NCBI GenBank assembly: GCA_964519835.1
Contig: CAZFLD010000016.1
Span: 825 to 64,824, forward strand
DNA: 64,000 nt
From: an uncultured Spirochaetales bacterium
Lineage (GTDB): Bacteria > Spirochaetota > Spirochaetia > DSM-27196 > CAZFLD01
Direction of reading: 5' to 3'
Part shown: positions 9,687 to 63,338 of the stretch, one piece after another
Layout: every line of letters begins with the position of its first letter
How positions within the stretch are numbered: the stretch's first letter is position 1
Made by a program: the position numbers and the translations under genes
The notes under the pieces: model-generated
What the model saw: only the letters and a program-made list of their open reading frames with translations
Told to the model about the DNA's origin: nothing
Database searches by the model: none

Positions 9687-9959
9687 CTACCGCGGTTCTC
9701 CTCGGCCGGAGTGTGACGCGTCTGTAGGCGATGCGTTGCTTGAGGCCGGGGTCTTGGCCGAGCGACGGAGCGGGGTCGTGTTGCGCTTCCGGAGTATCGT
9801 GATCCAACCCAATCCTGCTTGAAAAGGCTTGGGAATCAGAAACTCAACGTGCCTTTTATCTTCGTAGACCGGCACGCCCCATTCGGGGTCGTGGCGGGCG
9901 ACGGACAGTGGAACGGCTTCACACCACGCGTAGCGTTCGGGACTGGTCTTGTCAGGCAT
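9687..9959 (-). pseudogene. tag: Truncated, degenerate DNA-3-methyladenine glycosylase I
   Basis: RYAWC…HDPEWGVPVYEDKRHVEFLIPKPFQAGLGWITILRKR matches the Tag N-terminus; similarity ends after about 60 aa. Confidence 0.8.
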
Positions 9960-10103
9960 AACACAAGCATACTCGGCGGCCGGCGCCGATTCAAGTATAA
10001 GCCGCCGTTGGCCGGCAAGGAGATGGTGCGCGCGGCGGGTTCTCCAGCCGCGGCCGCCGCGCGTGACCCTCGAGCGTGCGTGACACAAACCGACCAAAGG
10101 TGA

Positions 10104-10205
10104 CACCTCAACTCAGCCGCCGTGAACTTCCGCGCGGAGCCGGACGCTGACGCGGACATTGTCGGATCAGGAGGCTTCGGCGACACCGTGGAGGTCATTG
10201 AATAG
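10104..10205 (+). pseudogene. Bacterial SH3-domain protein remnant
   Basis: VNFRAEPDADADIVGSGGFGDTVEVIE followed by TAG at 10203; resembles the SH3b consensus LNVRxxPxxxxxIVG…GDxVEVLE. Confidence 0.5.
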
Positions 10206-10489
10206 GACGGCGCGGTGACTATTGGGGTGTTGCACAATTCTCCCACGCTCCCCGTCCGCACTCTGAAATGCGACTCGAAAGCTACAGTCGCGAGCTCACC
10301 CTGCACGCCCTGCTGGTGATGTACGACGATGCGCCGATTACTCATACGTCCCAAAGAACCTTTTTGGGTCTACTGGCTCGATTCAGACGCGGATGAGTTC
10401 GCACTGCTCGTGGAATACGCCGAGGCTTCGGGCCCGCGACCGGCCTTTCTCCATCACACAGTGCACCTGGCCCGGATGGGCCGCCTGTA

Positions 10490-10647
10490 CCGGCCAACGC
10501 CCGTCGGGAAGTTGCTGGGCCAACACAAAGTCGACCACCGACTCGAGCACTGAGGGATCGATCCCGAAGTAGCAGGCGTAGTACAAAAACATGCCGTTGA
10601 TGCATAGGCCCGCCTCCGAGCAACCAATCGATGACTTTGGTCTCCAT
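10490..10647 (-). pseudogene. Internally deleted remnant of a prenyltransferase/squalene-cyclase-repeat family hypothetical protein
   Basis: METKVIDWLL joins, in another frame, CINGMFLYYACYFG…VVDFVLAQQLPDGRW (QxxDGxW repeat). TATAAT lies 6 nt before the ATG. Confidence 0.55.
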
Positions 10648-10670
10648 AGCCCCATTATATAATAAGGAAC

Positions 10671-11143
10671 ATGAGTACTCCGATTCTTTACACAAACGAC
10701 GGAACATAAAACGCGCCTCGCTTGCGCATCGATCTGAACCTCGGCAATCTCGACGGGCTGCCGGATTGGTCCAAGGGACCGCGCCAACACGCCTGGAGAG
10801 ATCCATGAAGTCGCAAAGCGCGCGGCCGACGGCGGCTACGAGTGCGCTACCCTCCACGTCGCCTGGGGCATGGAGGACGACAAAGAGATAGACCGCCTGC
10901 TAACAGCCGTCATAGACTCCTCCTCCCGTCACGGGATTCCGCTTTACGTGGAGACCCACCGCGCCACCATCACCCAGGATCTCTACCGCACCGTCAAGCT
11001 TACGGAACGTAATCCCGATGTGCGATTCAACGCCGATTTTAGCCACTGGTACACGGGACAGGAGATGATCTACGGCGACATCGACGCCAAGTTCGACTTT
11101 ATCGAGCCCGTCTTGGCGCGCCTTGCCTATATGCACGCCCGCG
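10671..11143 (+). pseudogene. Xylose-isomerase-like TIM-barrel (sugar phosphate isomerase/epimerase) pseudogene
   Basis: ATG at 10671 after AAGGA, an in-frame TAA at codon 13 and a frameshift near 10785. Then TLHVAWG…YVETHRATITQD…RFNADFSHW…MHAR; C-terminus missing. Confidence 0.75.
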
Positions 11144-11582
11144 ATGGCAGGTTTCCTTCGCGGCGCCGGCCCGCGCCGAGGCCGTCGCGGACTTCGATCC
11201 CCGTACCCAGTGTGATGTTTTCGAGTGCCAAAAGCTCGACGATCGGATCCACGAGCTTTATCCATAGTGCCTTGTCAGTTATTAGCAGGGATAGCTCGGG
11301 ACGGAGGATTTCTTGGCCCCCGGGCAGATGGCTTACAATCGCCTTGCACAGGAAGCGGACGCAGTCCCGGGTGAGGTTTGTACGACCACTACTGAGCGTG
11401 CCTAAGGGTATACGGTAGGGGCCCGCGGGATTAGCGAGGGCGAAGCATTCGCCGCCTACAAATCCACCCGCGAGGCAGGCTACAATCTTCTCTTGAACAT
11501 CGGTCCAATGCCGAGTGGCCGTTTTCCGCCGGAAGGTGTCGACCTGCTTCTGCGCCTTGCCGAGCAAATTGACAGAGGATAG
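11143..11582 (+). pseudogene. C-terminal remnant of an alpha-L-fucosidase (GH29)
   Basis: One frame reads FECQKLDDRIHELYP*CLVSY*QG*LGTEDFLAP…PGEVCTT…*GY…GYNLLLNIGPMPSG. NLLLNIGP is the GH29 signature. Four internal stops; ends 4 nt before the sulfatase ATG. Confidence 0.75.
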
Positions 11583-11586
11583 CAAC

Positions 11587-13119
11587 ATGAACAAACCAAA
11601 CGTCGTCGTTTTGTTTACCGACGATCAACGCTACGACACAATTGCCGCTCTGGGTAATTCCGAGGTCAAGACCCCGAATCTCGACAAGTTGGTAGCGCGC
11701 GGCACGAGCTTTACCCACGCCCACATTCCCTGCGGGACGGTAGGCGCAGTGTGTATGCCGAGTCGTGCCATGCTCCACACCGGCCGGAGCCTCTACCACC
11801 TTGGGACCGAGGAGGAACCCGACAATGCCGGTGCGACGATCCCGCAGGAGCACACCTTGATGGGCGAGGTGTTTCGCGCCGCAGGCTACGACACGTTTGG
11901 CACCGGCAAATGGCACAACGGGCCGGCCGCTTTCAACCGCAGCTTTGGCTCGGGAAAGGAGATCATGTTCGGCGGGATGGCCGACCACTGGAACGTGCCG
12001 ATGTGTGACCACGATCCTTCCGGAAACTACGACAATCTGCGGCCGATGATCCATGACCCATATGGTAGCAATGAGATATCCATGCATCACGTCGATCACA
12101 TTCATCCGGGTTCACATTCCACGGACCTCGTCGCCGACGCTGCCATTGCGTTCATCCGGGGTGCGGCGGCGGATGCCGAAAATCCCGCGGGTCCCCGTGA
12201 TGCCTCCAAGCCGTTTCTCGCCTACGTATCGTTTCTTGCGCCCCACGATCCCAGGTCCATGCCAAAGCGTTTCTTAGACATGTACGATCCGGCCTCGATC
12301 ACGTTGCCGGAGTCCTTTGCTCCGGAGCATGTCTTTGACTTTGGTGTTTCACAGATCCGGGACGAGCTACTCGAGGAGTATCCCCGAAGCCAAACCGCCG
12401 TCAGGGGGCACATCGCCGAGTACTACGCGATGATCAGCCACATCGACGAGGCGGTGGGGCGTGTGGTCGGTGCGCTGGAGCAGCAGGGCGTCCTCGACAA
12501 CACGATCATCGTGTTCGCGGGAGACAACGGCCTCGCCCTCGGCCGCCACGGGCTTATCGGCAAGCAGAGCAACTACGATCACAGTGTGCGAGTGCCGCTT
12601 ATGTTTGCGGGGCCGGGTGTTCCGGCCGGCAGGCAAACCGACGCCTACGCATATCTCTTTGACGTCTTCCCGACACTGTGCGATCTGACCGGCTTGGTGA
12701 CGCCTTCGAGCGTCGAGGGAAAAAGCCTGACGCCGGCGTTTGTTTTGGCCGAGGTCTCCGACGGCGGGGCGGCCGAGAGCTGCGCGACCGGTCACGCCAT
12801 AGGTCGCCGCGACGTGTTGTACTTCGGTTACGGCGATTTGCTTCGCAGTGCAAAAGACAAGCGCCACAAAATAGTCTTGTATGCGAACAAAGACCGCAAC
12901 TACATCCAAATGTTCGACCTTGTGAACGACCCGGAAGAAATCAAAAACATCGCCGGACTCCCGGAGACGGCCGCGGCGCAGGCGGCGCTGTCCGATGCGC
13001 TGATGGAATTGCGGGACGAATGGGAAGATCGCAAGACGTGCTGGGGCCGTGACTTCTGGAACCGCTTCGAGGGCAACGGGAGCCTTGCCGGGGCTCATAT
13101 CGTGCGGAGCGCCTTGTGA
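11587..13119 (+). CDS. S1 (formylglycine-dependent) sulfatase, Cys type, no signal peptide
   Basis: KPNVVVLFTDDQ, CMPSRAMLHTG (CxPxR), GKWH, APHDP and GDNG motifs; ATG at 11587 after GAGG. Confidence 0.92.
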   Translation: MNKPNVVVLFTDDQRYDTIAALGNSEVKTPNLDKLVARGTSFTHAHIPCGTVGAVCMPSRAMLHTGRSLYHLGTEEEPDNAGATIPQEHTLMGEVFRAAGYDTFGTGKWHNGPAAFNRSFGSGKEIMFGGMADHWNVPMCDHDPSGNYDNLRPMIHDPYGSNEISMHHVDHIHPGSHSTDLVADAAIAFIRGAAADAENPAGPRDASKPFLAYVSFLAPHDPRSMPKRFLDMYDPASITLPESFAPEHVFDFGVSQIRDELLEEYPRSQTAVRGHIAEYYAMISHIDEAVGRVVGALEQQGVLDNTIIVFAGDNGLALGRHGLIGKQSNYDHSVRVPLMFAGPGVPAGRQTDAYAYLFDVFPTLCDLTGLVTPSSVEGKSLTPAFVLAEVSDGGAAESCATGHAIGRRDVLYFGYGDLLRSAKDKRHKIVLYANKDRNYIQMFDLVNDPEEIKNIAGLPETAAAQAALSDALMELRDEWEDRKTCWGRDFWNRFEGNGSLAGAHIVRSAL

Positions 13120-14660
13120 AAAACATCCTTTTTATTACTACCGACCAGCAGCACCACATGGCAATGGGCTATCGAAACCCCGAAGTAAAGACCCCAAACC
13201 TCGATCGCCTCGTCTCCCAGGGCATGACCTTCCATCGCGCCTACACCGTGAACCCCACCTGCACACCGACTCGCGCAAGCCTTCTGACCGGCACCTATCC
13301 GAGTCAGCACGGCGCCTATAGCCTGGGCACCAAACTCCTGGAGAATCGAAAGTCTATCGGGGAGTACCTACGTGGAGATGGGGTTAGGAGCGCGCTCGTC
13401 GGCAAGGCTCACTTTCAGCCGCTTCGCTCCACCCACGAGTACTCGTCCCTCGAGGCCTACCCAAAGCTTCACGATCTCGATTTCTGGCGAAGCTTTCACG
13501 GCCCGTTCTACGGGTTCGACCACGTCGAGCTCGCGCGGAACCACACGGACGAGTCTCATGTCGGCCAGCACTACGCGCTCTGGATGGAAGAGAAGGGCCT
13601 TTGGAACTGGCGCGATTATTTCCTGCCGAACACACCCCAAACGACCTTCGAAGGCGATACGCTCACCGAATCGCAGCACACGCCCCGTGTCCCCGGTCAG
13701 GCCTGGGAAATCCCGGTCCAGTACCATTACAACGCCTGGATTGCCGATCGCACAAATGCCCTCATAAAACAGTACGCGGAGTCCGGCGATCGGTTTTATC
13801 TTTGGGCGAGCTTTTTTGATCCGCATCCGCAGTATATGGTGCCGGAGCCCTACGCATCCATGTACGACCCGGAACACGTCACCGTGCCCGAGCACACGCC
13901 CGGCGAGTTCGACGACAAGCCGCCCTACTACAAAAAGGCGCTCGAGGAGAATCCCGACGTTAGCGAGTTCCAGGAGCCCGAAGGAAACGCGATCCACGGC
14001 GGGGGAAGCCATCTCAAGAGTCGCGAGGACAAGGCAAAAAACATCGCCATGATGTACGGCATGATGACGATGCTCGACGACTACATCGGTAGTATTCTCG
14101 ACAACCTTGATCAGCTCGGCCTGGCCGACCAAACACTTGTGTGTTTCACAACCGACCACGGCGACTTTTTTGGGCAGCACGGCCTGACGGCAAAGGCGAT
14201 CCACCACTACGAGGATGTAATCCGAGTGCCGCTGGTCGTGCGCCTTCCCGGAAGCGTGCCCGCCGGCATAACAAGCGAATCACTCCAGTCGTTGGTGGAC
14301 CTTCCGGCGACCCTTTTGTCCATGCTCGGCCTTGCCGTGCCCCGGGAGATGACCGGCGTCGATCAGTCGGCCGTGTGGAGGGGCGAGGCGGACACAATTC
14401 GCCGTCGTCTTATCGTGGAGAATCAACACCAGCCGACAAAACTAAACATCCGAAGCTTGGTGACGGATCGCTACAAGATCACCGTCCACATGAACCGCGA
14501 CTACGGCGAGCTCTATGACCTTCAAGAGGATCCGGGTGAGCTCGTGAATCTCTGGGATCACCCCGAGGCGGCGGGGCTCAAGAGCCGCCTGCTGCTCGAG
14601 TTTATCCACGAGGAGATGGCAAAGGCGCCGCTTCCCATGCCGAGGATCTACGGCGCGTAG
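13116..14660 (+). CDS. S1 sulfatase, Cys type
   Basis: NILFITTDQ, CTPTRASLLTG, GKAH, DPHP, TDHG and ELYDL..DPGE motifs; GTGA overlap with the upstream sulfatase. Confidence 0.92.
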   Translation: MKNILFITTDQQHHMAMGYRNPEVKTPNLDRLVSQGMTFHRAYTVNPTCTPTRASLLTGTYPSQHGAYSLGTKLLENRKSIGEYLRGDGVRSALVGKAHFQPLRSTHEYSSLEAYPKLHDLDFWRSFHGPFYGFDHVELARNHTDESHVGQHYALWMEEKGLWNWRDYFLPNTPQTTFEGDTLTESQHTPRVPGQAWEIPVQYHYNAWIADRTNALIKQYAESGDRFYLWASFFDPHPQYMVPEPYASMYDPEHVTVPEHTPGEFDDKPPYYKKALEENPDVSEFQEPEGNAIHGGGSHLKSREDKAKNIAMMYGMMTMLDDYIGSILDNLDQLGLADQTLVCFTTDHGDFFGQHGLTAKAIHHYEDVIRVPLVVRLPGSVPAGITSESLQSLVDLPATLLSMLGLAVPREMTGVDQSAVWRGEADTIRRRLIVENQHQPTKLNIRSLVTDRYKITVHMNRDYGELYDLQEDPGELVNLWDHPEAAGLKSRLLLEFIHEEMAKAPLPMPRIYGA

Positions 14661-14689
14661 TGGGCCGCCGCACCCACGAACCACGCCGA

Positions 14690-14985
14690 CGCGAGGCCGA
14701 TGATTTCCTCGAGCGTTATCACTTCATCCAAGAGATACGCATCTCTGTTGCTTTGAGTCCACAGGATGGGACGGGGAAGCTCGGTAAAAAAGGCGCCGTA
14801 CAGCGACTGACCAAAAAAAGAGCTCCAGCTGTTTCCGATCTCGCAGACCGGCGGAGCTCTGCATCAATTCTGAGGCGAATGTATCGAACTCGCCGGGAGT
14901 CAGGTCCGGATGAACGGCAACGTAGGCCGCCATGGCTTCCGCCGCGGAAAGCTGGTCTTGTAGGCGCCGTATTGTTTTTTGTCAT
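14690..14985 (-). pseudogene. Possible CHASE-type sensor-domain remnant
   Basis: AMAAYVAVHPDLTPGEFDTFASELM resembles the start of CHASE domains; no intact frame. Confidence 0.3.
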
Positions 14986-15077
14986 GGTAACAATCGGGCA
15001 CTAATCACAGGATCTATACGCGGCCCCGAGTGTATCATACAATCCCTGTAATAAAACTCAGGCCCAGGGAGGTGTGT

Positions 15078-46994: not shown

Positions 46995-47149
46995 TTCGAG
47001 TCCGTTGAAGCAGACTTTCAATCGATTCAAGACGAGTGGGTACTACAGGCTCCTACCGGTGGGTGAGGATTGGGTTAGTTACGCTATTCCGGACTGTACA
47101 ACTAGTCAAATCGGGTGTAGCATGGAAAAGTCAAAACAAGGAGTTTGTT

Positions 47150-47656
47150 ATGCTCAGAAACGTCGCGCCCGTATTGTGCGCATTTGGTGTCCTGCTCGTT
47201 CTTATGTCCTGTGGCACAACCGACCCAGACGCTACCACGTCGGAAGACCTAAGCTCATATCAAACCTGGACCAAGGTCAATGACGAGACCATTACCGGTG
47301 ACGCCACCGGCACGCTTGGACAGCAGGTCCACGAGGGCGCAGGCGGTTTTCGCGAGGTCTTTGTCAACTCAGTCGGCGCGCCGGTCTACGCCGGGGAATC
47401 CTCCACGCCGTTTCCCGTCGGAACGATCATCGTAAAAGAGTCGTATCCTGAAGCAGACGGCTCAAAAGGCGAGCTTGCGAACCTAACCGTAATGGTCAAG
47501 CGCGAAGCCGGGTACGATAGCTCCAACGGCGACTGGGAGTGGGCCATGCTAGGCCCCGATATGGGCATTCGAACGCAGGGCAGGCTCGCTTCCTGCTACC
47601 AGTGCCACGCCGTCGCCGCGGACACTGACTACAGCTTTCTCGTCGGCGACCTCTAA
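47150..47656 (+). CDS. Cytochrome P460 family lipoprotein
   Basis: LMSC lipobox, FPVGTIIVKE, VMVK, GDWEW and C-terminal CYQCH; SD AAGGAG. Confidence 0.85.
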   Translation: MLRNVAPVLCAFGVLLVLMSCGTTDPDATTSEDLSSYQTWTKVNDETITGDATGTLGQQVHEGAGGFREVFVNSVGAPVYAGESSTPFPVGTIIVKESYPEADGSKGELANLTVMVKREAGYDSSNGDWEWAMLGPDMGIRTQGRLASCYQCHAVAADTDYSFLVGDL

Positions 47657-54635: not shown

Positions 54636-56777
54636 ATGTCCCCAAATGTTCTACGCGAATTGCCCCGCGGCGGCTACCTTGTTACTACACCACACGAACG
54701 CATCCAGTTCGGCGCACCGCCCGAGACAATAAAAGACACAATGCCTGATGCGTCAGGCGTTCCCGAGATCTTTGTTCTCCCCCGTCAAATGTTCAACTGG
54801 AGCAAAGGAATCAACGTTGCGGACATGGAGTTCCCCATCTACTTCCATTTTTTTATCCGCAAACAACGGCCGCTGATTTGCGGAACCATGGCGCAAGCGC
54901 GATCCCTATCCACCGCGCTCCAAGAGGCCGTTTTTGGTCCCAAGGGCTTTACTATCCACAGCGACATGATCGAAATCGGTGACGATACCTTTGTTCCGGA
55001 CATCAGCCAGGAGCTCGCGTTTTTCAGGCGCGGTCTCGAACTCAAGGACATGTTTCGATTCAGACCGTTTAAGGACGGGCGCCTTCGTGTCGGCTCGGCG
55101 ACGATCACCATAACCGACGGGGACAATTACTTGGTGGAGGCCGACGGCATGGAGCCGGTGGAAGTCCCGGGCTACATCGACTACACGGCCAGATTCGACG
55201 GCGGAAGCACCCTACCGGAACCCTTTATTCCACCGCGCTTTGGTGTTACTTGCCTGGGGCCGAGCCACGGGTTTGACCCTGCCGACAATACTTCGGGCTT
55301 TATTATCTGGCTAAACCACAACGGCATTATGATCGACCCACCGGTAAACTCCACGGAGTGGCTGCTGAAAGCGAACGTCAATCCCAAGTATATCGACAGT
55401 ATCATTCTCACGCACTGCCATGCGGACCATGATGCGGGTACGTTCCAGAAGATCCTCGAAGAAGGCCGAGTCACCATCTACACCACCAAGACTATCATGG
55501 GCAGTTTCTTACGGAAGTACGCGGCTTTTAGCGAAGAATCTGAAGAGTATCTGCAACGCTTTTTCTCGTTTCAGCCGATCTACATTGGCCGAACGACACA
55601 AATTCATGGCGGTGAGTTTGACGTGTTCTATTCACTCCATTCGATACCGACCATGGCGTTTAAGCTCAGTTTTCAAGGCAAGACCTTTGTTTACTCGTCT
55701 GATCACCAAGGTGATGTCGAGGTGCAGAGGCAGCTCTTGTCCGAGGGGCTCATCGACCAGCGGCGGTTCGACCAGCTCCACTCGTTCCCGTGGCAGAGTG
55801 ACGTCATCTACCACGAGTCGGGCATTGCACCGCTGCACACATCGCTGACTTTCCTGGCCTCGTTGCCCGCCGACGTCCAGCAGCGCATTGTTGTCTACCA
55901 TATTTCGGAGAAGGATTTCGCGAAGGTAGAGAATCAAGGTCTGACCAGAGCAACGTTCGGCATCGAGAACACGCTCTACTTCGAAACCAGCGAGCCGCCG
56001 TACGAGGACGCGTACCGGATGCTCGATGTCCTCAAGCGGCTCGATTTCTTCGAGTCGATGCCCGTGAAAAAGGTTCAAGAGTTTTTGACCGTCGTCGAGC
56101 GTCGGCACTTCTCTCGTGGCGAGAAGGTCATCGAAGAGGGCACCTTGGGCGACGCGTTTTACATCATTGAAAGCGGCAATGCCTCGGTTGTAAATGCCGA
56201 GCTCGAAACCCAAAAAAAGCTCGGCGCGTACGACTACTTCGGAGAAGTCGCGCTGCTCACCAACAGGCGCCGGACGGCGGATATTATTGCGGAAACCGAG
56301 CTTGACACCATCGTTTTGCCAAAAGACAAGTTTATCAACTTTATCTCCGGCACCGAGTTCGAGAAACTCCTGCTCCGCGTAATCGAACGCCGTGATGAGC
56401 ACATTTGGAACCTGCTCGTCGCCACTCCGGCGTTTTCTCGGCTTACCGACTACCAAAAGATGTGGCTCGAGGGCACGCTGCAAATGCAGGATTTTGACGA
56501 CGGAACGGTATTGGTCGAGCAGGGGGACGCGTTGCCCGGGGTGTACCTCATAGCCGAAGGTGATGTCGCGGTAAGCAAGGATCGCCGGGAGCGTTCGAGC
56601 CTAGGTCGAGCTGAGACCGTTGGCATGTTGCCCGTACTGTTCCGCGGTGAGCCCGCCCGATTCACCTTCACGTGCCGGGGTCCCGTGCTCGCCCTTTTTA
56701 TCTCAAAATCCGACGCCATAGAGTTTATGGAACGAAATCCCGGAGCCTCCATGCGCGTCGAGACCCTCTACGCCTGA
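54636..56777 (+). CDS. Metallo-beta-lactamase-fold hydrolase with two cNMP-binding domains (putative cyclic-nucleotide-regulated phosphodiesterase)
   Basis: THCHADH, HSIP, FYIIESG and FGEVALL…RTA; second cNMP domain divergent. Confidence 0.85.
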   Translation: MSPNVLRELPRGGYLVTTPHERIQFGAPPETIKDTMPDASGVPEIFVLPRQMFNWSKGINVADMEFPIYFHFFIRKQRPLICGTMAQARSLSTALQEAVFGPKGFTIHSDMIEIGDDTFVPDISQELAFFRRGLELKDMFRFRPFKDGRLRVGSATITITDGDNYLVEADGMEPVEVPGYIDYTARFDGGSTLPEPFIPPRFGVTCLGPSHGFDPADNTSGFIIWLNHNGIMIDPPVNSTEWLLKANVNPKYIDSIILTHCHADHDAGTFQKILEEGRVTIYTTKTIMGSFLRKYAAFSEESEEYLQRFFSFQPIYIGRTTQIHGGEFDVFYSLHSIPTMAFKLSFQGKTFVYSSDHQGDVEVQRQLLSEGLIDQRRFDQLHSFPWQSDVIYHESGIAPLHTSLTFLASLPADVQQRIVVYHISEKDFAKVENQGLTRATFGIENTLYFETSEPPYEDAYRMLDVLKRLDFFESMPVKKVQEFLTVVERRHFSRGEKVIEEGTLGDAFYIIESGNASVVNAELETQKKLGAYDYFGEVALLTNRRRTADIIAETELDTIVLPKDKFINFISGTEFEKLLLRVIERRDEHIWNLLVATPAFSRLTDYQKMWLEGTLQMQDFDDGTVLVEQGDALPGVYLIAEGDVAVSKDRRERSSLGRAETVGMLPVLFRGEPARFTFTCRGPVLALFISKSDAIEFMERNPGASMRVETLYA

Positions 56778-57272: not shown

Positions 57273-60200
57273 GTGCGTGTGCTGAAGGTTATTGGATCGC
57301 TCAAGATCACGGTAGTGTTGCTGCTCGTGCTGTTTGTGTTGGTTCTTGCCGGGACACTGTACCAGGTAGAACATGGGATCTTCCGCGCTCAGCGCGATTT
57401 CTTTGACGCGTTCTTCGTGACGGTTCTGCCGATACCCCTTCCCGGCGCGCAAACGGTGTTTTGGGTGATCGGAGTGAACCTTGTGGCATCTCTCGTCGTG
57501 AACATCGCCCGCCGGCGGATGTCCGTCGGGTTGGTCATCTCGCACCTTGGTCTGGTCATGATGCTTGTTGCAGGATTTAACGGCATCTACGGGACCGAGT
57601 CCTCCGCGTTGGCTCTCTGGGAAGGTGAGGCAGCATCGGAGGTGTCGGTGCCGGGCGAATGGGAGTTCCGATATCGCCTCGAGGAGGATGGTCGGATACT
57701 CACCGAGGGGCGCATCCCGGGCGACAGTATTGTCGAAGGGCGCCGCGTCGCGGGAGATGCACTTGGTCCACACGGCATCGGGCTAAAGGTGGTCCAATCG
57801 GCGGTGAATACACGACCGATTGTTGATGCCTCGGGGCAGCGGAACTTGGAGGTCCTATCGCCGGAAATCGAGCCCCAAGAAAACAACCCGGGGCTTTTGT
57901 TGGACCTGACCGACGGCGACGGGTCAAGAATTCCCGTGCTGCTCTACTCTCTCGACCTGGGTCCGACCGTCTTGGCCTCGGGTCCGCGCGTTATCGAGCT
58001 CCAGTTTGGAGCGGTCTCCCGGAAGATACCGTTCTCCGTGGAGCTGGTTGATTTTCGCGTGTCGTTTTATCCGGGAACGGATCTGGCACAGTCATTTGAA
58101 AGCACGGTGCGAGTGTCGGACGGCGACTTGGTTTGGGATCGGGTCATTTCCATGAACAACCCTCTTCGATACCGTGGCTACACCTTCTACCAGTCGTCGT
58201 ATCAGATTAATGATGATGGAAGAGAAGCGTCGGTGTTCGCGGTTAGAAAGGGCGGCATCGCGGAAATCCCCTACCTGGCCACGGCGGCCATTCTTGCCGG
58301 GATGGTCATGCACTATATCGGCAGGCACATACGGCGACCGTCCGGCAGGTCTCGGGCCCGCCAGTTACGGAAACCTTCGACCGCCGCTTCCCGTTCCACG
58401 GTCGTTGGAGTGGCGTTGATTGCGGTGAGCGTTTTGGCTACCGCCGCGCCTGCGATAGGCGCCCAAGAGCCAAACCGGACGCAAAACGTACCGGCTCCCG
58501 ACCCCTCTGCGGCGGCCCGGGCGGTGCTGGACCACTTGCGTCCGGTGGTGAACGATTTTCGGGTCCTGCGTGTGCAGGCAAATGGACGAACGATGCCGGT
58601 GGAGACGTATGCCCGGCATGCACTTCGCTCGATATCGGGGCGAGTTTCGATCAGTGGTTTGGATGCGGTAGAGTGGCTGTTCCTCTCCCTGACCCGTCCT
58701 GCACTTGCCGATCAGCTGCCTACCGTCCTCGTCGAGCACCCGGATGTTTTCAGCGCGGTCGGAGATTCGCTAGATGATCGAGGCCGCTACGCTCCGTCGC
58801 GCTTGTTGCGGTACTTCGCGGCCTTTGGGTCTGCTGCGGAGGCCGCGGAGTCGGCAGGTGCCGACGGACCTCTGTTTGCGGATTTGCGGCGAGTCCTGCG
58901 GTCGCTTGAGTACCTCAACGACCTTCGTTACGGTGCGGCCGGGTTTAGCATAGTGCCGCCCGCCGCGCCACGTGACCGCAGGATCTGGGTGGGGCCACAG
59001 CATTCTTCCGCTCCGGAAGAGTACGCTGAAGGGCTTCGGGAGCTGCGGGAGGCGGTGATTGTCGCCGACCGGTCGCGAGCATCGGATGCTCTTGGCGTTA
59101 TTGTTTCCCTGCAGAGCCTTGCCGTCGATGAATCGGCCGACGCCGGTAGGCCGGTTCTCGAGGCCTGGTATAAACGCAGCGGCCTGCCACTTTGGATTGG
59201 AGCTACGCTTGCCGCGGCTTTTTTGGTGTCCGTGATGCTCAGAGGCCGACCCAGGCGCTACGGGCTTGTCGTGGCCGTAGCCGTGCCGACAGCGGCGTAC
59301 TCACTGCTCATCGCTGTGCGTGTGGTCTTGACCGGTCGTCCACCGGTGGTCGACCTGTACAGTAGTGCCCTCTTTGTAGGCTGGGCGTCGGCGTTGACCG
59401 CCTTTGTGTTGGTGGCGCGGGGTGTCCGGCGGGACCTCTCGCAGGTTGCCATTGTTGTTTCCGGAATCCTGCTCTTTGTGGCCGAGGCTACAGTTGGGAA
59501 TCAGGACACACTTGGTGTTGTCCAGGCGGTGTTGGATACAAACTTCTGGCTTGCAGTCCATGTCATCGTTATCACATTGGGGTATGCCGCCAACATCCTC
59601 GCGGGCGTCGGCGCCCACGCGTACGTTGTCTTGCGGTTGATACGACCGTTCCACACGGACCGGCACGCTCGCCTGTTTCGGGGCCTCTATGCTCTCCTGG
59701 CCGCCGGGCTTGTTCTGTCTTTCGCCGGGACCATGCTCGGAGGCTTCTGGGCCGATCAGGCATGGGGCAGGTTCTGGGGATGGGATCCCAAAGAGAATGG
59801 GGCGCTCCTGATCATTCTCTTCGATGCGATCCTGCTCCACGCCCGACCGGCGAACCTTCTTAAAGGTTACGGTTTTGCGCTTGTGGCGGTCCTGAGCATT
59901 CCGGTGGTGCTGTTTTCATGGCTCGGTGTGAATCTTCTCGGCGTTGGTCTCCACTCCTACGGATTTCAAGACGGCTCCTTTGTCGGCCTTTTTACCGTGC
60001 TCATCTTTGAGGGGCTATTCGTGAGCCTTGGTGCGCTTCTCATACGAGCGGTACCGGAAGGCGTGCTGCCGGGTGTACGACCTATGAAGCTCGTCGATCG
60101 ACTTGACGAAGGCCACGGGGCATTTTCGCTGTGGCTTCAGGCGCGGGACAAAGCCGACCCGTTGGTGCAAGCACGGCCGGGTTCGTATCTCACGCTTTTT

Positions 60201-61091
60201 GTGCCGGACAACGGTAGGCGGGTCGGTAGGGTCTATTCCGTGTCCGGATTCAGGCGCGAGGACGCCTCGATTCGGCTGACGGTTCGATGGGTTGAGGGCG
60301 GGGCGGGGTCCCGTTTTTTGATCCGGGATGCCCGGCTGGGCTCCTCCGTCGACGTCCTTGGACCATCCGGCTCGTTTGCATTGGCGGACCGGTCGGAAAA
60401 AGGTGTGCGGGTGTTCGCCGGTGCCGGTGTAGGAATCGGTGTACTAATCGCGATGATCAAAGAGCAGCTTGCCCGTGGACCACGCGGAACCTTGCTCCTC
60501 ATAGCGGTAGCGCCAAGCCGTACCGAAGTTGTTTATCATGAGGAAATCGAGGCCGATCTCCGCGGGAGTGTGGCAGTCCACTACCATGAGACAGCTGTCG
60601 ACGGCAGGAAAATTGATTTGAATTCTGTTGTTGATGCCTCGGAGGTTGCCGCAACCTACGTCTGTGGACCGCCGGGCTTCGTCGAGGACTTTGTCGCCAC
60701 TGTCGAACGGTCCGGGATCGGATCCGACCGCGTTTATGCTGAGGCATTCCATCCGAGTCCGCATGCCCTTGTTGAGACCGACGGCAAGCAAAGACTCTCC
60801 ATTCTCGGTACCGGCGACCACGTCGAGGTCCGGCCCGGCCAGTCAATTCTCGACGCCGGTTTGCGTGGTGGACTGGATTTGCCGTATGGCTGTGGTGTGG
60901 GCTACTGCCGGGACTGTCGTATGAAGATCGTGTCCGGCTCCGTTGCTCATGGCGAGCCCAACGCCCTAACGGACCACGAGCGAGCATCACACGACAGTGT
61001 GCTGACTTGTGTTGCGGTCCCACTTGGACCGGTCACGCTGAAGCCGTTGCCGGAACTCAACGAGGCTCGGTCCGTGTCCGGGGAGGCTTAG
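57273..61091 (+). CDS. Fused cytochrome c synthase ResB(CcsB)-CcsA with a C-terminal FAD/NAD(P)H/[2Fe-2S] oxidoreductase
   Basis: GTLYQ, SHLG, MNNPLRYRGYTFYQSS, WLAVHV, WADQAWGRFWGWDPKE, LLHAR and GLHSYG. Then RVYS, GAGS, GPSGSF, YVCGP, EAF and CGVGYCRDC…C. One uninterrupted ORF. Confidence 0.92.
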   Translation: MRVLKVIGSLKITVVLLLVLFVLVLAGTLYQVEHGIFRAQRDFFDAFFVTVLPIPLPGAQTVFWVIGVNLVASLVVNIARRRMSVGLVISHLGLVMMLVAGFNGIYGTESSALALWEGEAASEVSVPGEWEFRYRLEEDGRILTEGRIPGDSIVEGRRVAGDALGPHGIGLKVVQSAVNTRPIVDASGQRNLEVLSPEIEPQENNPGLLLDLTDGDGSRIPVLLYSLDLGPTVLASGPRVIELQFGAVSRKIPFSVELVDFRVSFYPGTDLAQSFESTVRVSDGDLVWDRVISMNNPLRYRGYTFYQSSYQINDDGREASVFAVRKGGIAEIPYLATAAILAGMVMHYIGRHIRRPSGRSRARQLRKPSTAASRSTVVGVALIAVSVLATAAPAIGAQEPNRTQNVPAPDPSAAARAVLDHLRPVVNDFRVLRVQANGRTMPVETYARHALRSISGRVSISGLDAVEWLFLSLTRPALADQLPTVLVEHPDVFSAVGDSLDDRGRYAPSRLLRYFAAFGSAAEAAESAGADGPLFADLRRVLRSLEYLNDLRYGAAGFSIVPPAAPRDRRIWVGPQHSSAPEEYAEGLRELREAVIVADRSRASDALGVIVSLQSLAVDESADAGRPVLEAWYKRSGLPLWIGATLAAAFLVSVMLRGRPRRYGLVVAVAVPTAAYSLLIAVRVVLTGRPPVVDLYSSALFVGWASALTAFVLVARGVRRDLSQVAIVVSGILLFVAEATVGNQDTLGVVQAVLDTNFWLAVHVIVITLGYAANILAGVGAHAYVVLRLIRPFHTDRHARLFRGLYALLAAGLVLSFAGTMLGGFWADQAWGRFWGWDPKENGALLIILFDAILLHARPANLLKGYGFALVAVLSIPVVLFSWLGVNLLGVGLHSYGFQDGSFVGLFTVLIFEGLFVSLGALLIRAVPEGVLPGVRPMKLVDRLDEGHGAFSLWLQARDKADPLVQARPGSYLTLFVPDNGRRVGRVYSVSGFRREDASIRLTVRWVEGGAGSRFLIRDARLGSSVDVLGPSGSFALADRSEKGVRVFAGAGVGIGVLIAMIKEQLARGPRGTLLLIAVAPSRTEVVYHEEIEADLRGSVAVHYHETAVDGRKIDLNSVVDASEVAATYVCGPPGFVEDFVATVERSGIGSDRVYAEAFHPSPHALVETDGKQRLSILGTGDHVEVRPGQSILDAGLRGGLDLPYGCGVGYCRDCRMKIVSGSVAHGEPNALTDHERASHDSVLTCVAVPLGPVTLKPLPELNEARSVSGEA

Positions 61092-61606
61092 GCCCGGGCC
61101 TTCCGTTTTTTCACCAGGCGCTTGTTTGGGAGCAAGATCAGCATCGCCCCGGTACCGGCTATGGCCGCGATCAGATACTGGCTCAGGATAAGCGTCGGCG
61201 ATATTAAGGGGAGCAGCCCCGCGACGATTTGCACCACACCGCCAATGACAAAGAGGACCGGCGTCCACCATAGAGCATTGATCAGGAAAGCAACGCCCAT
61301 CAGCAGAAGCCAGAATGCTCCCAGGTACGGCGCGAGCGGGCGGATTGGCGGGATGTAAAAGCACAGGAACGAGACGGCCAGGCCGACCACGACCGTGACA
61401 AGCCACAGAACCAAAATCTTTCGAAGTTTTGGTTGTTTCCACGGCATGTAGCGGATCATGGGCACAAACGCGACCACCGAAAGCGCCAACCAGATCCAGT
61501 TCGCCGTGAAGTTCTTGAAAATAAAGTGAGTGGTGAGCCACCCAATTAGCTCGGCTACCGCCCAAACTAAAAACACAATACGCGGTTTGTTCCAGAATTT
61601 TGCCAT
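61088..61606 (-). CDS. Hypothetical integral membrane protein
   Basis: About 6 hydrophobic helices; SD AAGGGGGAG. Confidence 0.8.
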   Translation of the reverse strand: MAKFWNKPRIVFLVWAVAELIGWLTTHFIFKNFTANWIWLALSVVAFVPMIRYMPWKQPKLRKILVLWLVTVVVGLAVSFLCFYIPPIRPLAPYLGAFWLLLMGVAFLINALWWTPVLFVIGGVVQIVAGLLPLISPTLILSQYLIAAIAGTGAMLILLPNKRLVKKRKARA

Positions 61607-61671: not shown

Positions 61672-62049
61672 TCAGTCGGATTTGATCGAAAAACGGTCGG
61701 GATCGAACCGCTCCCCACCCAACCACAGGTCGATTCGGGTTCCCTTGTCGTGTTTGCCGACGGTGGCCTCTTTGACTTGCCAGCCCACGAGGTCGAGGCG
61801 AGCCGAGCCAAGGAAGTCAAATCCCGCCATGGACCCGTAGTATCCCGCAAGCTCCGGCCTTCCGGGGTCTTTGAGGGCCCCTCGGATCGATTCGAGCTCC
61901 GCGTCGCTCCGCGGTGTGTCGTCGAAGACGGCCAGATGGAGGCCGTCCTCCTCCTGGTGCAAAGAAATGACCATCCGCGTTGGGTCCGCGTCGAGTACAT
62001 AGTGAGCCACCTCGCTAATAAGGTGGAGCAGAAAATCGGTTCGTTTCAT
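61672..62049 (-). CDS. Hypothetical protein coupled to the DUF1576 gene
   Basis: ATGA overlap; conserved-looking RPELAGYYGSMAG. Confidence 0.8.
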   Translation of the reverse strand: MKRTDFLLHLISEVAHYVLDADPTRMVISLHQEEDGLHLAVFDDTPRSDAELESIRGALKDPGRPELAGYYGSMAGFDFLGSARLDLVGWQVKEATVGKHDKGTRIDLWLGGERFDPDRFSIKSD

Positions 62050-63338
62050 AAATCTGTGCCCTTTTGGTCGGTTTCAGTCGTTGCTTTGAAGCCGTAGCTG
62101 TTTCGAGTGGAGCGAAACCACTCGATAACCGCGACCAATACGGCTGCGGTGATGCCGCCGGCAAACCCATTGTTGTACAAGTTTACGCCCAGGTGAAAGG
62201 CACCCGTGCGCTCAACAAGTGTCAAGTGAACAAAACCGGCAATCACGCCCACAAGGGGACCGAATTCGCCGGCAAGGGGAGCGAGGGTGAGGGAGAACAA
62301 CGCGGCAAGAATTGGTCCCGGCGCCGTGAGTGACTTGCCGTACAAAAGAGTCGCGATGACCACTCCCGCCACGATGCTCCATGAGTTCCTTGGATGCTTC
62401 CCAAAGGCGGCAAAACCGATTGCCGTGAATATACCTCCCAGTACCGGCCCGTTTAGGTCGCCACCTACCACCATAACGTAGCCCCAGGTAAGGAGTCCGA
62501 CGGTGCCCATATTGAGGAGGGCGGCTCCGGTTGATGTAAGGCTCAGGAAGTCCGAGGGCAGCCGCCCGCTTAACTTTTGGATTTCGACAAAACTTCGCCA
62601 GACCCCTTTGGGGTCCCAAAGGATGCCCGCGACCACGAGCACGGCCGAGATTGCCGGGGCGAGGAAAACGAGGGGAGCCGAGGGGGTGGTGTTCCATACA
62701 AGCACCGCTCCCGGTGCCCTACCGGCGGCTACCAGAAATGCAGCGGCAACTACACCGATAAAGCCGCACGTTAGGCCGATGTTATACAAGTTAAAGCCCT
62801 GATGCAGGCGGAGCATTACAATCGCGAGCGCCGGCAGAAGCATTCCCGCAACCAATCCGGACAGCGCTCCGGCCGGCAGAGCGTAGTAGAGCGGTAGGCC
62901 CGCCTCCACTGCGACCGCCGATGCGAGTGGTGCAAGGGCAGTGCCGAAGAGCGCCATCAAGATGTACTCGTTGAAGTTCTTGCCCGCTATGCGGGAGGCA
63001 ATAACCACACCGCCAATAACCGGCAGGATGTTTGTCGGTGTCTTTCCAAAAAGACCAAATCCAAACATCGTGAGGACGGCGGCAATCGTGGGGCCGGAAA
63101 ATCGAACTTTGGTAACGGCAACGATCCCAAGTCCTACAAGGGCGACAAGGGCCGCGTTTATCAGGGCCGACCCCCCGCTCTCCGCTTTGGTAAAGTCCTG
63201 CAGGAGACGTGCCGGGAGCGCCTGAATTCGCACCAGTCCTGCTGCCGCCGCCCCGGGTCCCTCCATCAGGATGCCGAGTACAATCACGCCAAAAAGAATC
63301 GCCGCAAAGAGAATGTATAGTCGCCCGTCCTTGCTCAC
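62046..63338 (-). CDS. DUF1576 family membrane protein
   Basis: GFGLFGK, LFGTALAP, HQGFNLYNIG, GFAAFGKH and NLYNNGFAGG internal duplication. Confidence 0.9.
   Translation of the reverse strand: MSKDGRLYILFAAILFGVIVLGILMEGPGAAAAGLVRIQALPARLLQDFTKAESGGSALINAALVALVGLGIVAVTKVRFSGPTIAAVLTMFGFGLFGKTPTNILPVIGGVVIASRIAGKNFNEYILMALFGTALAPLASAVAVEAGLPLYYALPAGALSGLVAGMLLPALAIVMLRLHQGFNLYNIGLTCGFIGVVAAAFLVAAGRAPGAVLVWNTTPSAPLVFLAPAISAVLVVAGILWDPKGVWRSFVEIQKLSGRLPSDFLSLTSTGAALLNMGTVGLLTWGYVMVVGGDLNGPVLGGIFTAIGFAAFGKHPRNSWSIVAGVVIATLLYGKSLTAPGPILAALFSLTLAPLAGEFGPLVGVIAGFVHLTLVERTGAFHLGVNLYNNGFAGGITAAVLVAVIEWFRSTRNSYGFKATTETDQKGTDL

Follow-up and report, generated by a model that had tools for sequence, protein, structure and literature searches.

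A System II cytochrome c synthase gene fused to an NAD(P)H-type reductase module in uncultured spirochaetes

The DNA analysed here (the window) is a 64,000-nucleotide stretch from an uncultured Spirochaetales bacterium of a microbial mat (assembly GCA_964519835.1, contig CAZFLD010000016.1). It contains one gene that joins the membrane machinery attaching haem to c-type cytochromes, the ResB and CcsA proteins of System II, to an NAD(P)H-driven electron-transfer module. The gene for this ResB-CcsA-reductase fusion lies on the forward strand at 57273-61091, as do all the domains described below, and comprises 1272 codons with no internal stop. It begins with GTG, 13 nt downstream of a GGAAAGG stretch, and a second in-frame GTG at 57279, two codons further on, is an alternative start. 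A first reading made from the sequence alone had proposed one stop-free frame of 1272 amino acids carrying ResB, CcsA, an FNR-type module and a ferredoxin; the reading frame and the matches to Pfam and NCBIfam models confirmed this.

The synthase part begins with the ResB (CcsB) domain at 57525-58382 (residues 85-370; Pfam ResB, PF05140, E 2e-17, 63.6 bits against a cut-off of 24.6). This span holds the first periplasmic domain and a membrane helix with the transmembrane (TM) histidine of the CcsB side, H90 (codon 57540-57542). The second periplasmic domain, with the motif GRxMP, is found at 58467-59222 (about residues 399-650); it aligns with the solved CcsBA of Helicobacter hepaticus (7s9y) as far as residue 477, and a Pfam search of residues 430-656 returned no family. 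The CcsA core follows at 59349-59954 (residues 693-894; Cytochrom_C_asm, PF01578, E 1.2e-24, 87.6 bits against a cut-off of 29.9), with the two histidines P-His1 (H763) and P-His2 (H894) and the CcsA-side TM histidine (H856). Within it, the WWD motif WGRFWGWDPKEN at 59763-59798 (residues 831-842) marks the external haem-binding site. The last membrane helix, at 59970-60050 (residues 900-926), runs from the periplasmic P-His2 loop to the cytoplasm and is followed by a linker of 9 residues. The NCBIfam CcsB equivalog TIGR03144 scores 122.1 bits, below its cut-off of 187.6; the protein diverges from the curated CcsB seed, and its assignment to the family rests on Pfam and the solved homologue. 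CcmF/NrfE models match weakly: two NrfE models reach 18 bits (E 7.5e-4; cut-off 927) and 17 bits (E 2.4e-3; cut-off 394).

Three domains make up the reductase. The flavin-binding beta-barrel lies at 60078-60392 (about residues 936-1040), with RVYS (986-989) and GGAGS, and is matched by FAD_binding_6 (PF00970) over residues 960-1035 (E 2.2e-7, 31.5 bits against a cut-off of 21.1). The NAD(P)H-binding domain at 60405-60767 (about residues 1045-1165; GAGVGIG, YVCGP and EAF) is divergent: NAD_binding_1 (PF00175) gives no match in the window protein at E<=0.01, though most of its shorter relatives carry PF00175. The NCBIfam models MmoC and BenC nevertheless align through residue 1162, that is, across the NAD(P)H region, where the structural model has a confident beta/alpha fold. 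The plant-type [2Fe-2S] ferredoxin domain is located at 60804-61022 (residues 1178-1250; ligands C1207, C1212, C1215 and C1246), coinciding with Fer2 (PF00111, E 9.4e-14, 51.6 bits against a cut-off of 21). Together these domains are spanned over residues 954-1255 by NCBIfam models of FNR-Fer2 reductases, namely PaaE (5e-34), MmoC, BenC and PRK10684. Scores stay far below the equivalog cut-offs of all four models (PaaE 117.6 against 420.8, MmoC 92.4 against 500, BenC 85.5 against 430), and by this measure the fusion reductase belongs to no named oxygenase-reductase family. Residues 930-1272 also match GcoB (5ogx, 1.6e-24), phthalate dioxygenase reductase (2pia, 2.9e-17) and many plant-type ferredoxins.

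The junction of synthase and reductase, at about 59950-60080, is crossed with no differences by Logan contigs from three runs of one microbial-mat study. One of these contigs (X1) covers the whole stretch and is possibly the source of this DNA, while the others cover 59917-60276 (X2) and 59916-60191 (X3). Read depth at the locus is low (2-8), and the genome, here G000, is a metagenome bin of 4.70 Mb in 204 contigs, 92% complete with 3.6% contamination. The sequence-only reading would have been abandoned had the fusion been unique to this assembly or its junction unspanned; three runs bridge the junction and 25 other protein clusters share the architecture. The fusion is no assembly accident.

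These 25 clusters, defined at 90% identity, were found in a search with residues 660-1272; all carry CcsA plus reductase and are only 32-41% identical to the window protein, so the architecture recurs in divergent sequences. Seven of them also bear ResB (1273-1433 amino acids) and 18 are without it (812-989 amino acids). Most of the shorter members open with a signal-peptide-like stretch, followed by the second periplasmic domain. In another genome of the window's order, G457, a separate ResB gene lies ahead of the shorter form and overlaps it, so the family exists both as ResB-CcsA-reductase and as ResB plus CcsA-reductase. The G457 CcsA-reductase gene is interrupted by a masked stretch and was equated with family member P0004 through their identical start and end.

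The fusion is rare. A search of 1.84 billion representatives clustered at 50% identity gave 1674 proteins below 1e-30; of the best 150 matches, 15, counting that of the window itself, span CcsA and reductase, and the other 135 match in the CcsA part only. It occurs in five of 99 genomes of the window's order (G000, G457, G017, G025 and G495, where the gene runs into a contig end). Of 401 genomes sampled evenly across the phylum, only G000 and G017 have it; the other 52 matching genomes contain free-standing reductases, with matches from query residue 67 on and most frames about 380-430 amino acids long. One fused gene is present among the 415 CcsA-type stretches listed from a species-genome collection, labelled 'MAG: Salinispira sp.' and identical with G017, and none among the 429 listed from a metagenome collection. 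One family member carries the NCBI label Spirochaetota.

Conservation was assessed in an alignment of 25 fused proteins, eight of them bearing ResB. All motifs named from the sequence alone (SHLG, AVHV, WWD, LLHAR, GLHSY, RVYS, YVCGP, EAF and the CxxxxCxxC...C of the ferredoxin) are present and are conserved in this alignment. H90 of SHLG is kept in all eight ResB-bearing members, and H763 (AVHV), H856 (LLHAR) and H894 (GLHSY) are invariant in 25/25, as is the WWD region W831-N842, except at positions of the G843 type. In the reductase, RVYS takes the form [RK]x[YF]S in every member, with S989 invariant; the glycine of YVCGP is invariant and its cysteine is found in 20 of the 25; E1157 and F1159 of EAF do not vary across the set; and C1207-x4-C1212-x2-C1215...C1246 is invariant throughout. 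Pairwise identities average 48% in the CcsA core and 38% in the ferredoxin; in the flavin, NAD(P)H and second periplasmic domains alike the mean is 28%, which indicates that the reductase evolves about as fast as the periplasmic domain while its ligands are kept.

Residues 660-1272 were modelled with AlphaFold2 from an alignment of 49 rows (mean predicted local distance difference test score, pLDDT, 89.7; predicted template modelling score, pTM, 0.86). In the model, a low-confidence P-His2 loop is followed by the 27-residue helix 900-926 (helix 241-267 of the modelled piece, pLDDT 88-98), the 9-residue linker, and the first strand of the flavin barrel at residue 936. Each of the 25 fused proteins has 3-8 Lys/Arg residues in the 20 positions after this helix, against 0-1 in the preceding loop. 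According to the available part of PMC10663686, P-His2 of the CcsBA family faces the periplasm. With P-His2 in the periplasm, a single helix after it, a charge count that obeys the positive-inside rule, and a module that depends on NAD(P)H, flavin and Fe-S assembly, the reductase is placed on the cytoplasmic side, as the sequence-only reading had also concluded.

That reading had further described the last helix as extra. The helix exists, and it is extra only in comparison with minimal CcsA proteins, being an older feature of the CcsBA subfamily. The structure 7s9y aligns through the helix after P-His2; in each of the 17 unfused homologues sampled, the chain goes on for 34-86 residues past P-His2; and the unfused CcsA proteins of G033 and G485, two relatives within the order, terminate just past the last helix. 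It is absent only from minimal CcsA proteins, such as the second copy of G000, which ends with GLHSYA. On these alignments the last helix pre-dates the fusion and stands outside its novelty. Residue 913 (60009-60011), in the middle of the helix, is Glu in most fused proteins and Asn or Gln in three, and Glu is also found at the aligned site of H. hepaticus CcsBA.

Several known systems resemble parts of the fusion. Residues 1-929 match H. hepaticus CcsBA (7s9y/7s9z) in two stretches, ResB and CcsA (E 3.3e-36). In both proteins ResB and CcsA form one chain with two periplasmic domains and a hydrophobic helix after P-His2, and the WWD motif, H763, H894, H856 and H90 face their counterparts in the alignment. 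Sequence identity is low, however, and the H. hepaticus protein ends about 20 residues past the helix, whereas the window protein continues for about 345 residues as the reductase. Phthalate dioxygenase reductase and the self-sufficient P450s CYP116B (2pia, 6kbh, 6laa) share with it the order flavin, NAD(P)H and C-terminal plant-type [2Fe-2S], and in CYP116B the module is likewise C-terminal to the haem domain that it reduces, on the same polypeptide. They are only 22-24% identical to it, and the partner here is a polytopic membrane haem-handling protein instead of a soluble oxygenase. NADPH oxidases and ferric reductases (SpNOX, 8qt6) also have a membrane domain in which two haem sites are stacked, with an FNR-type domain after it on the cytoplasmic side, but their membrane domain is unrelated (the ferric-reductase family is not among the four Pfam matches), the window protein adds a [2Fe-2S] step, and its outer haem site is the active site of a synthase.

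Only ferrous haem can be attached to a c-type cytochrome, and this rare fusion may reveal how haem iron stays ferrous for attachment by System II. Here CcsBA, which is both haem exporter and haem-attaching enzyme, is extended past its C-terminal helix into the cytoplasm by a module like phthalate dioxygenase reductase. In the proposed mechanism the flavin would take two electrons from NAD(P)H and hand them singly to the [2Fe-2S] cluster, and the cluster would then reduce the iron of the inner-leaflet haem held by H90 and H856, or of haem in the adjoining cytoplasmic vestibule. We consider the chances about even that electrons pass in this manner from NAD(P)H through flavin and [2Fe-2S] to haem in the inner-leaflet site, which the sequence-only reading had also named as a plausible acceptor; the acceptor, and hence the purpose, is what we infer.

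Several findings are consistent with such haem reduction. Two genomes, G017 (99% complete, one contig) and G025 (96% complete), have no PF01578 match other than the fused gene, and each has a Cytochrome_P460 gene. As the only CcsA-family gene in these two relatives the fusion should still be the synthase, and haem attachment is predicted. Judged by its sequence and model, the reductase looks functional. Its best fold matches are CYP116B (6kbh, 6laa) and phthalate dioxygenase reductase (2pia), with E values of 4.7e-19 to 9.8e-17, and the list also holds flavohaemoglobins, SpNOX (8qt6), NOX5 and siderophore-interacting ferric reductases. By analogy, modules of this type feed haem iron in other natural fusions, for example CYP116B. 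In G457, P460 and haem-synthesis genes lie beside the fusion. According to the available part of PMC10663686, the inner TM haem of CcsBA sits in the inner-leaflet plane, with a cytoplasmic vestibule alongside; the haem that CcsBA moves is reduced; and for CcmF the proposal is that electrons reach the substrate haem through the protein's own membrane haem. Purified CcsBA is described in the portion of PMC8112865 at hand as needing dithiothreitol (DTT) to start attachment in vitro.

If the inner-leaflet haem is indeed the acceptor, the fusion would be, by analogy, the System II counterpart of yeast Cyc2p and of the haem reductase CcmF. Cyc2p of System III is a membrane-anchored NAD(P)H flavoprotein reported to reduce haem before attachment, and the available part of PMC3884852 mentions no Fe-S domain in it. 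It is a separate protein on the intermembrane-space side, partnered with the soluble synthase HCCS, and the likeness is functional and by description only. CcmF/H of System I is, like CcsA, a WWD-family membrane protein whose haem is held by two membrane histidines (PMC10663686, in part); it has no fused reductase, its electron donor is unnamed in the accessible part of that paper, and the window protein belongs to the CcsA branch.

Other observations weigh against the idea that the module serves haem reduction at the inner site. The great majority of System II synthases operate without such a module. In G000 the fused gene stands alone, with unrelated neighbours. A link between the fusion and haem auxotrophy was rejected: fused and unfused CcsA alike occur in genomes lacking ALAD, and haem genes are present in G457. 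Some family members are damaged or degenerate; P0026 has a scrambled C-terminus and no ferredoxin domain, P0024 has an incomplete flavin domain, and members with degenerate NAD(P)H motifs include P0020/21, P0012 and P0027. Finally, the CcsA of G485 (595 amino acids), which is 79% identical to P0024 and 71% to P0022, stops exactly at the junction, and the G033 gene, syntenic with the fused gene of G025 (an ACT-domain protein and a permease follow in this neighbourhood), ends after the last helix. In a tree of CcsA cores, G485 falls inside a clade of eight fused rows and G033 groups with fused rows on a long branch.

Two types of CcsA are found in the order. The small type (open frames of 269-393 amino acids) occurs in 16 genomes, G000 among them, and the large type in eight (G000, G457, G017, G025, G495, G485, G033 and G494), five of which have it fused. 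On the CcsA-core tree the fused state needs three changes, compared with a mean of 14.4 when labels are shuffled, and none of 500 shuffles gave so low a number. This tree, of 44 rows, is unrooted and comes from a quick search; its unfused rows were picked by similarity to the query, and two fragments and the small CcsA of G000 itself are omitted. Since G485 and G033 keep the synthase and the helix without the reductase, the module can be regarded as an accessory that can be shed.

A different route, to which we attach a small probability, would resemble that of CcmF. Electrons leaving the reductase on the cytoplasmic side would be relayed by a fixed membrane haem to haem at the external WWD site, including ferric haem from outside the cell, and the protein would be a haem oxidoreductase and synthase and not an exporter of reduced haem. 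CcmF is itself proposed to act so in the available part of PMC10663686, and both TM histidines are conserved here. Searches of G000 (92% complete) found no ALAD, porphobilinogen deaminase or ferrochelatase, and ALAD was found in none of the ten CcsA-bearing genomes among 41 searched, G000, G017 and G025 included. However, haem synthesis is encoded right beside the fused gene in G457, and unfused CcsA is present in the same ALAD-lacking genomes, so that auxotrophy does not require the module; periplasmic entry of haem, moreover, is unsupported by evidence for any CcsBA. If true, this route would mean that the reduction step of System I had been invented again by convergence, here driven directly by pyridine nucleotide and possibly working on scavenged external haem in organisms unable to make it.

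It is improbable, slightly more so than the CcmF-like route, that the two haem sites serve as a wire to some other periplasmic acceptor, such as an oxidative-stress repair system or a mature cytochrome, in the manner of NADPH oxidase or MsrQ. The order of a membrane haem domain and then an FNR-type domain is that of NADPH oxidase, and SpNOX (8qt6) and NOX5 are among the fold matches. In addition, in both G017 (stretch L041, 12224-12799) and G025 (stretch L042, 7207-7845) the fused gene has beside it, in divergent orientation, a gene for an exported MsrB (SelR domain, signal peptide). MsrB is a thiol enzyme, though, and would not accept electrons from haem; its orthologue in G000 (63-65% identical) sits on another contig (C18:48418-49005); and since G017 and G025 are members of a single family, they may simply have inherited this gene order. 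The strict conservation of WWD and both P-His residues, together with the status of the fusion as the sole CcsA-family gene in two genomes, indicates that synthase work is kept.

Equally doubtful is the view that the last helix merely tethers a reductase which passes no electrons into CcsBA and serves another partner (an oxygenase, a desaturase, ferric-iron release) or redox sensing. Retention of the fusion across sequences only 32-41% identical, in ResB-fused and split forms alike, is at odds with it, as are the short linker of 9 residues and the whole-chain pTM of 0.86, and a conserved candidate partner gene was seen beside the fusion in none of the four contexts read (G000, G017, G025 and G457). 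What speaks for a tether is that free-standing membrane-anchored FNR-Fer2 proteins exist (stretches L045 and L046), that siderophore-interacting ferric reductases are among the fold matches, and that the module has been lost while the synthase was kept.

The sequence-only reading had also allowed that the reductase, in place of CcdA/ResA, keeps the CxxCH cysteines of the apocytochrome reduced. Attachment does require reduced thiols. An FNR-[2Fe-2S] chain donates single electrons to metal centres and is not a dithiol reductase; the module is a one-electron carrier, and it is on the wrong side of the membrane. No conserved redox-active CxxC is present in the periplasmic parts of the family alignment. 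G000 encodes one CcdA gene, and a DsbD_TM/CcdA gene was found in all fused genomes checked (G000, G017, G025 and G457) and in the unfused relatives G033 and G485. Replacement of CcdA/ResA is unsupported, because CcdA is present in all six genomes checked, and the thiol route is very improbable. Weakest of all, an assembly chimera or decaying pseudogene, for which only the fragmented, slightly contaminated bin and the low read depth could speak, is scarcely credible given an exact junction in three runs, the same junction in 25 other clusters and four further genomes of the order, and 1272 open codons with every cofactor ligand intact.

Reduction of haem at the inner site by the fused module would have a wider bearing on System II. 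No physiological haem reductant of System II is named in the available parts of PMC10663686 and PMC8112865. System III has a candidate reductase in Cyc2p, and for System I one has been proposed in CcmF with its membrane haem. With its NAD(P)H-flavin-[2Fe-2S] chain on the cytoplasmic face of CcsBA, close to the position of the inner haem in the solved homologue, the fusion is a 'Rosetta stone' hint, suggesting that haem reduction at the inner site is a real step of System II, and a single polypeptide permits haem reduction to be assayed with NAD(P)H instead of DTT. Both parts come from known families and the combination is the new thing. The sequence-only reading knew of no description of this architecture, and none of CcsA or ResB fused to an FNR/ferredoxin reductase was returned by searches of the full-text literature, a body that leaves subscription journals and supplements outside. 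A paper pairing 'heme handling protein' with 'reductase domain' concerns CcmF paralogues in ANME archaea and was set aside. Both halves have been caught by annotation pipelines, as in the automatic JGI name 'ferredoxin-NADP reductase/ABC-type transport system involved in cytochrome c biogenesis permease'.

In this lineage the synthase probably acts on cytochrome P460-family lipoproteins, along with a small number of other proteins bearing CxxCH. In the window, a cytochrome P460-family lipoprotein with CYQCH near its C-terminus is encoded on the forward strand at 47036-47656, 9.6 kb upstream of the fusion, and is a candidate substrate through co-occurrence in the order rather than adjacency. 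A second P460-family lipoprotein of G000, also with CxxCH near the C-terminus, is encoded at C28:32308-32850, and other c-type cytochrome candidates of this genome are a membrane sensor with CTECH and a lipoprotein with two CxxCH motifs. The CTECH protein (C28:30821-32311, 496 amino acids) is a membrane protein with a periplasmic CTECH domain, HAMP and an adenylate/guanylate cyclase domain; its gene lies directly upstream of the second P460 gene and overlaps it, and it may be a haem-c sensor cyclase. G000 also encodes a second System II pair, a small ResB (344 amino acids) and CcsA (255 amino acids), on contig C25.

Over the 99 genomes of the order, 19 contain both P460 and CcsA, four CcsA only, one P460 only (a weak match) and 75 neither, in a count that treats kin genomes as if independent. 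P460 and CcsA are less than 3 kb apart in G443, G026, G459 and G457. System II in these spirochaetes seems to exist mainly for P460-family proteins. Cytochrome bd and haem-copper oxidase were not found in G000, and the ALAD-lacking organisms look, from their gene content, like haem auxotrophs that still make c-type cytochromes. They probably take up haem, which we infer to arrive in the ferric state. The order thus appears to use System II almost only alongside cytochrome P460-family proteins, often without haem synthesis genes, a small and unexplored haem economy.

The setting is different in G457 (C17, L128 2314-19350). Here the order of genes is P460 (divergent), ResB, CcsA-reductase, ferrochelatase, DUF2231, polyprenyl synthetase and a UbiA-family protein, and further on a class-III aminotransferase (HemL-like), ALAD and porphobilinogen deaminase, an arrangement that reads as a cytochrome-maturation and haem-synthesis island. 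In a separate look at quinone status, two UbiA-family matches were uninformative, since all 14 control genomes match as well. No neighbour gene is common to the four contexts read.

Separate FNR-Fer2 genes near unfused CcsA were considered as a split form of the fusion and given no weight, as their occurrence is at about chance level by rough estimate. Such a gene was near CcsA in two of the 415 stretches listed from the species-genome collection (L045 and L046), and one unrelated FNR-like gene was found among the 429 listed from the metagenome collection (L130). In L046, from a Verrucomicrobiales metagenome-assembled genome, a membrane-anchored FNR-[2Fe-2S] protein (411 amino acids), a lipoprotein, ResB and CcsA are encoded on the same strand at 9797-15072, amid genes for multihaem cytochromes; this arrangement could be a divided form of the same design, or a coincidence.

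Three further genes flank the fusion in the window. Directly upstream, after a gap of 495 nt, a protein of 713 amino acids with a metallo-beta-lactamase fold and two cyclic-nucleotide-binding domains is encoded on the forward strand at 54636-56777. Downstream, on the reverse strand, a 172-residue membrane protein with no Pfam family is encoded at 61088-61606, its stop overlapping that of the fused gene by 4 nt. It is followed on the same strand, at 62046-63338, by a DUF1576 membrane protein of 430 amino acids.

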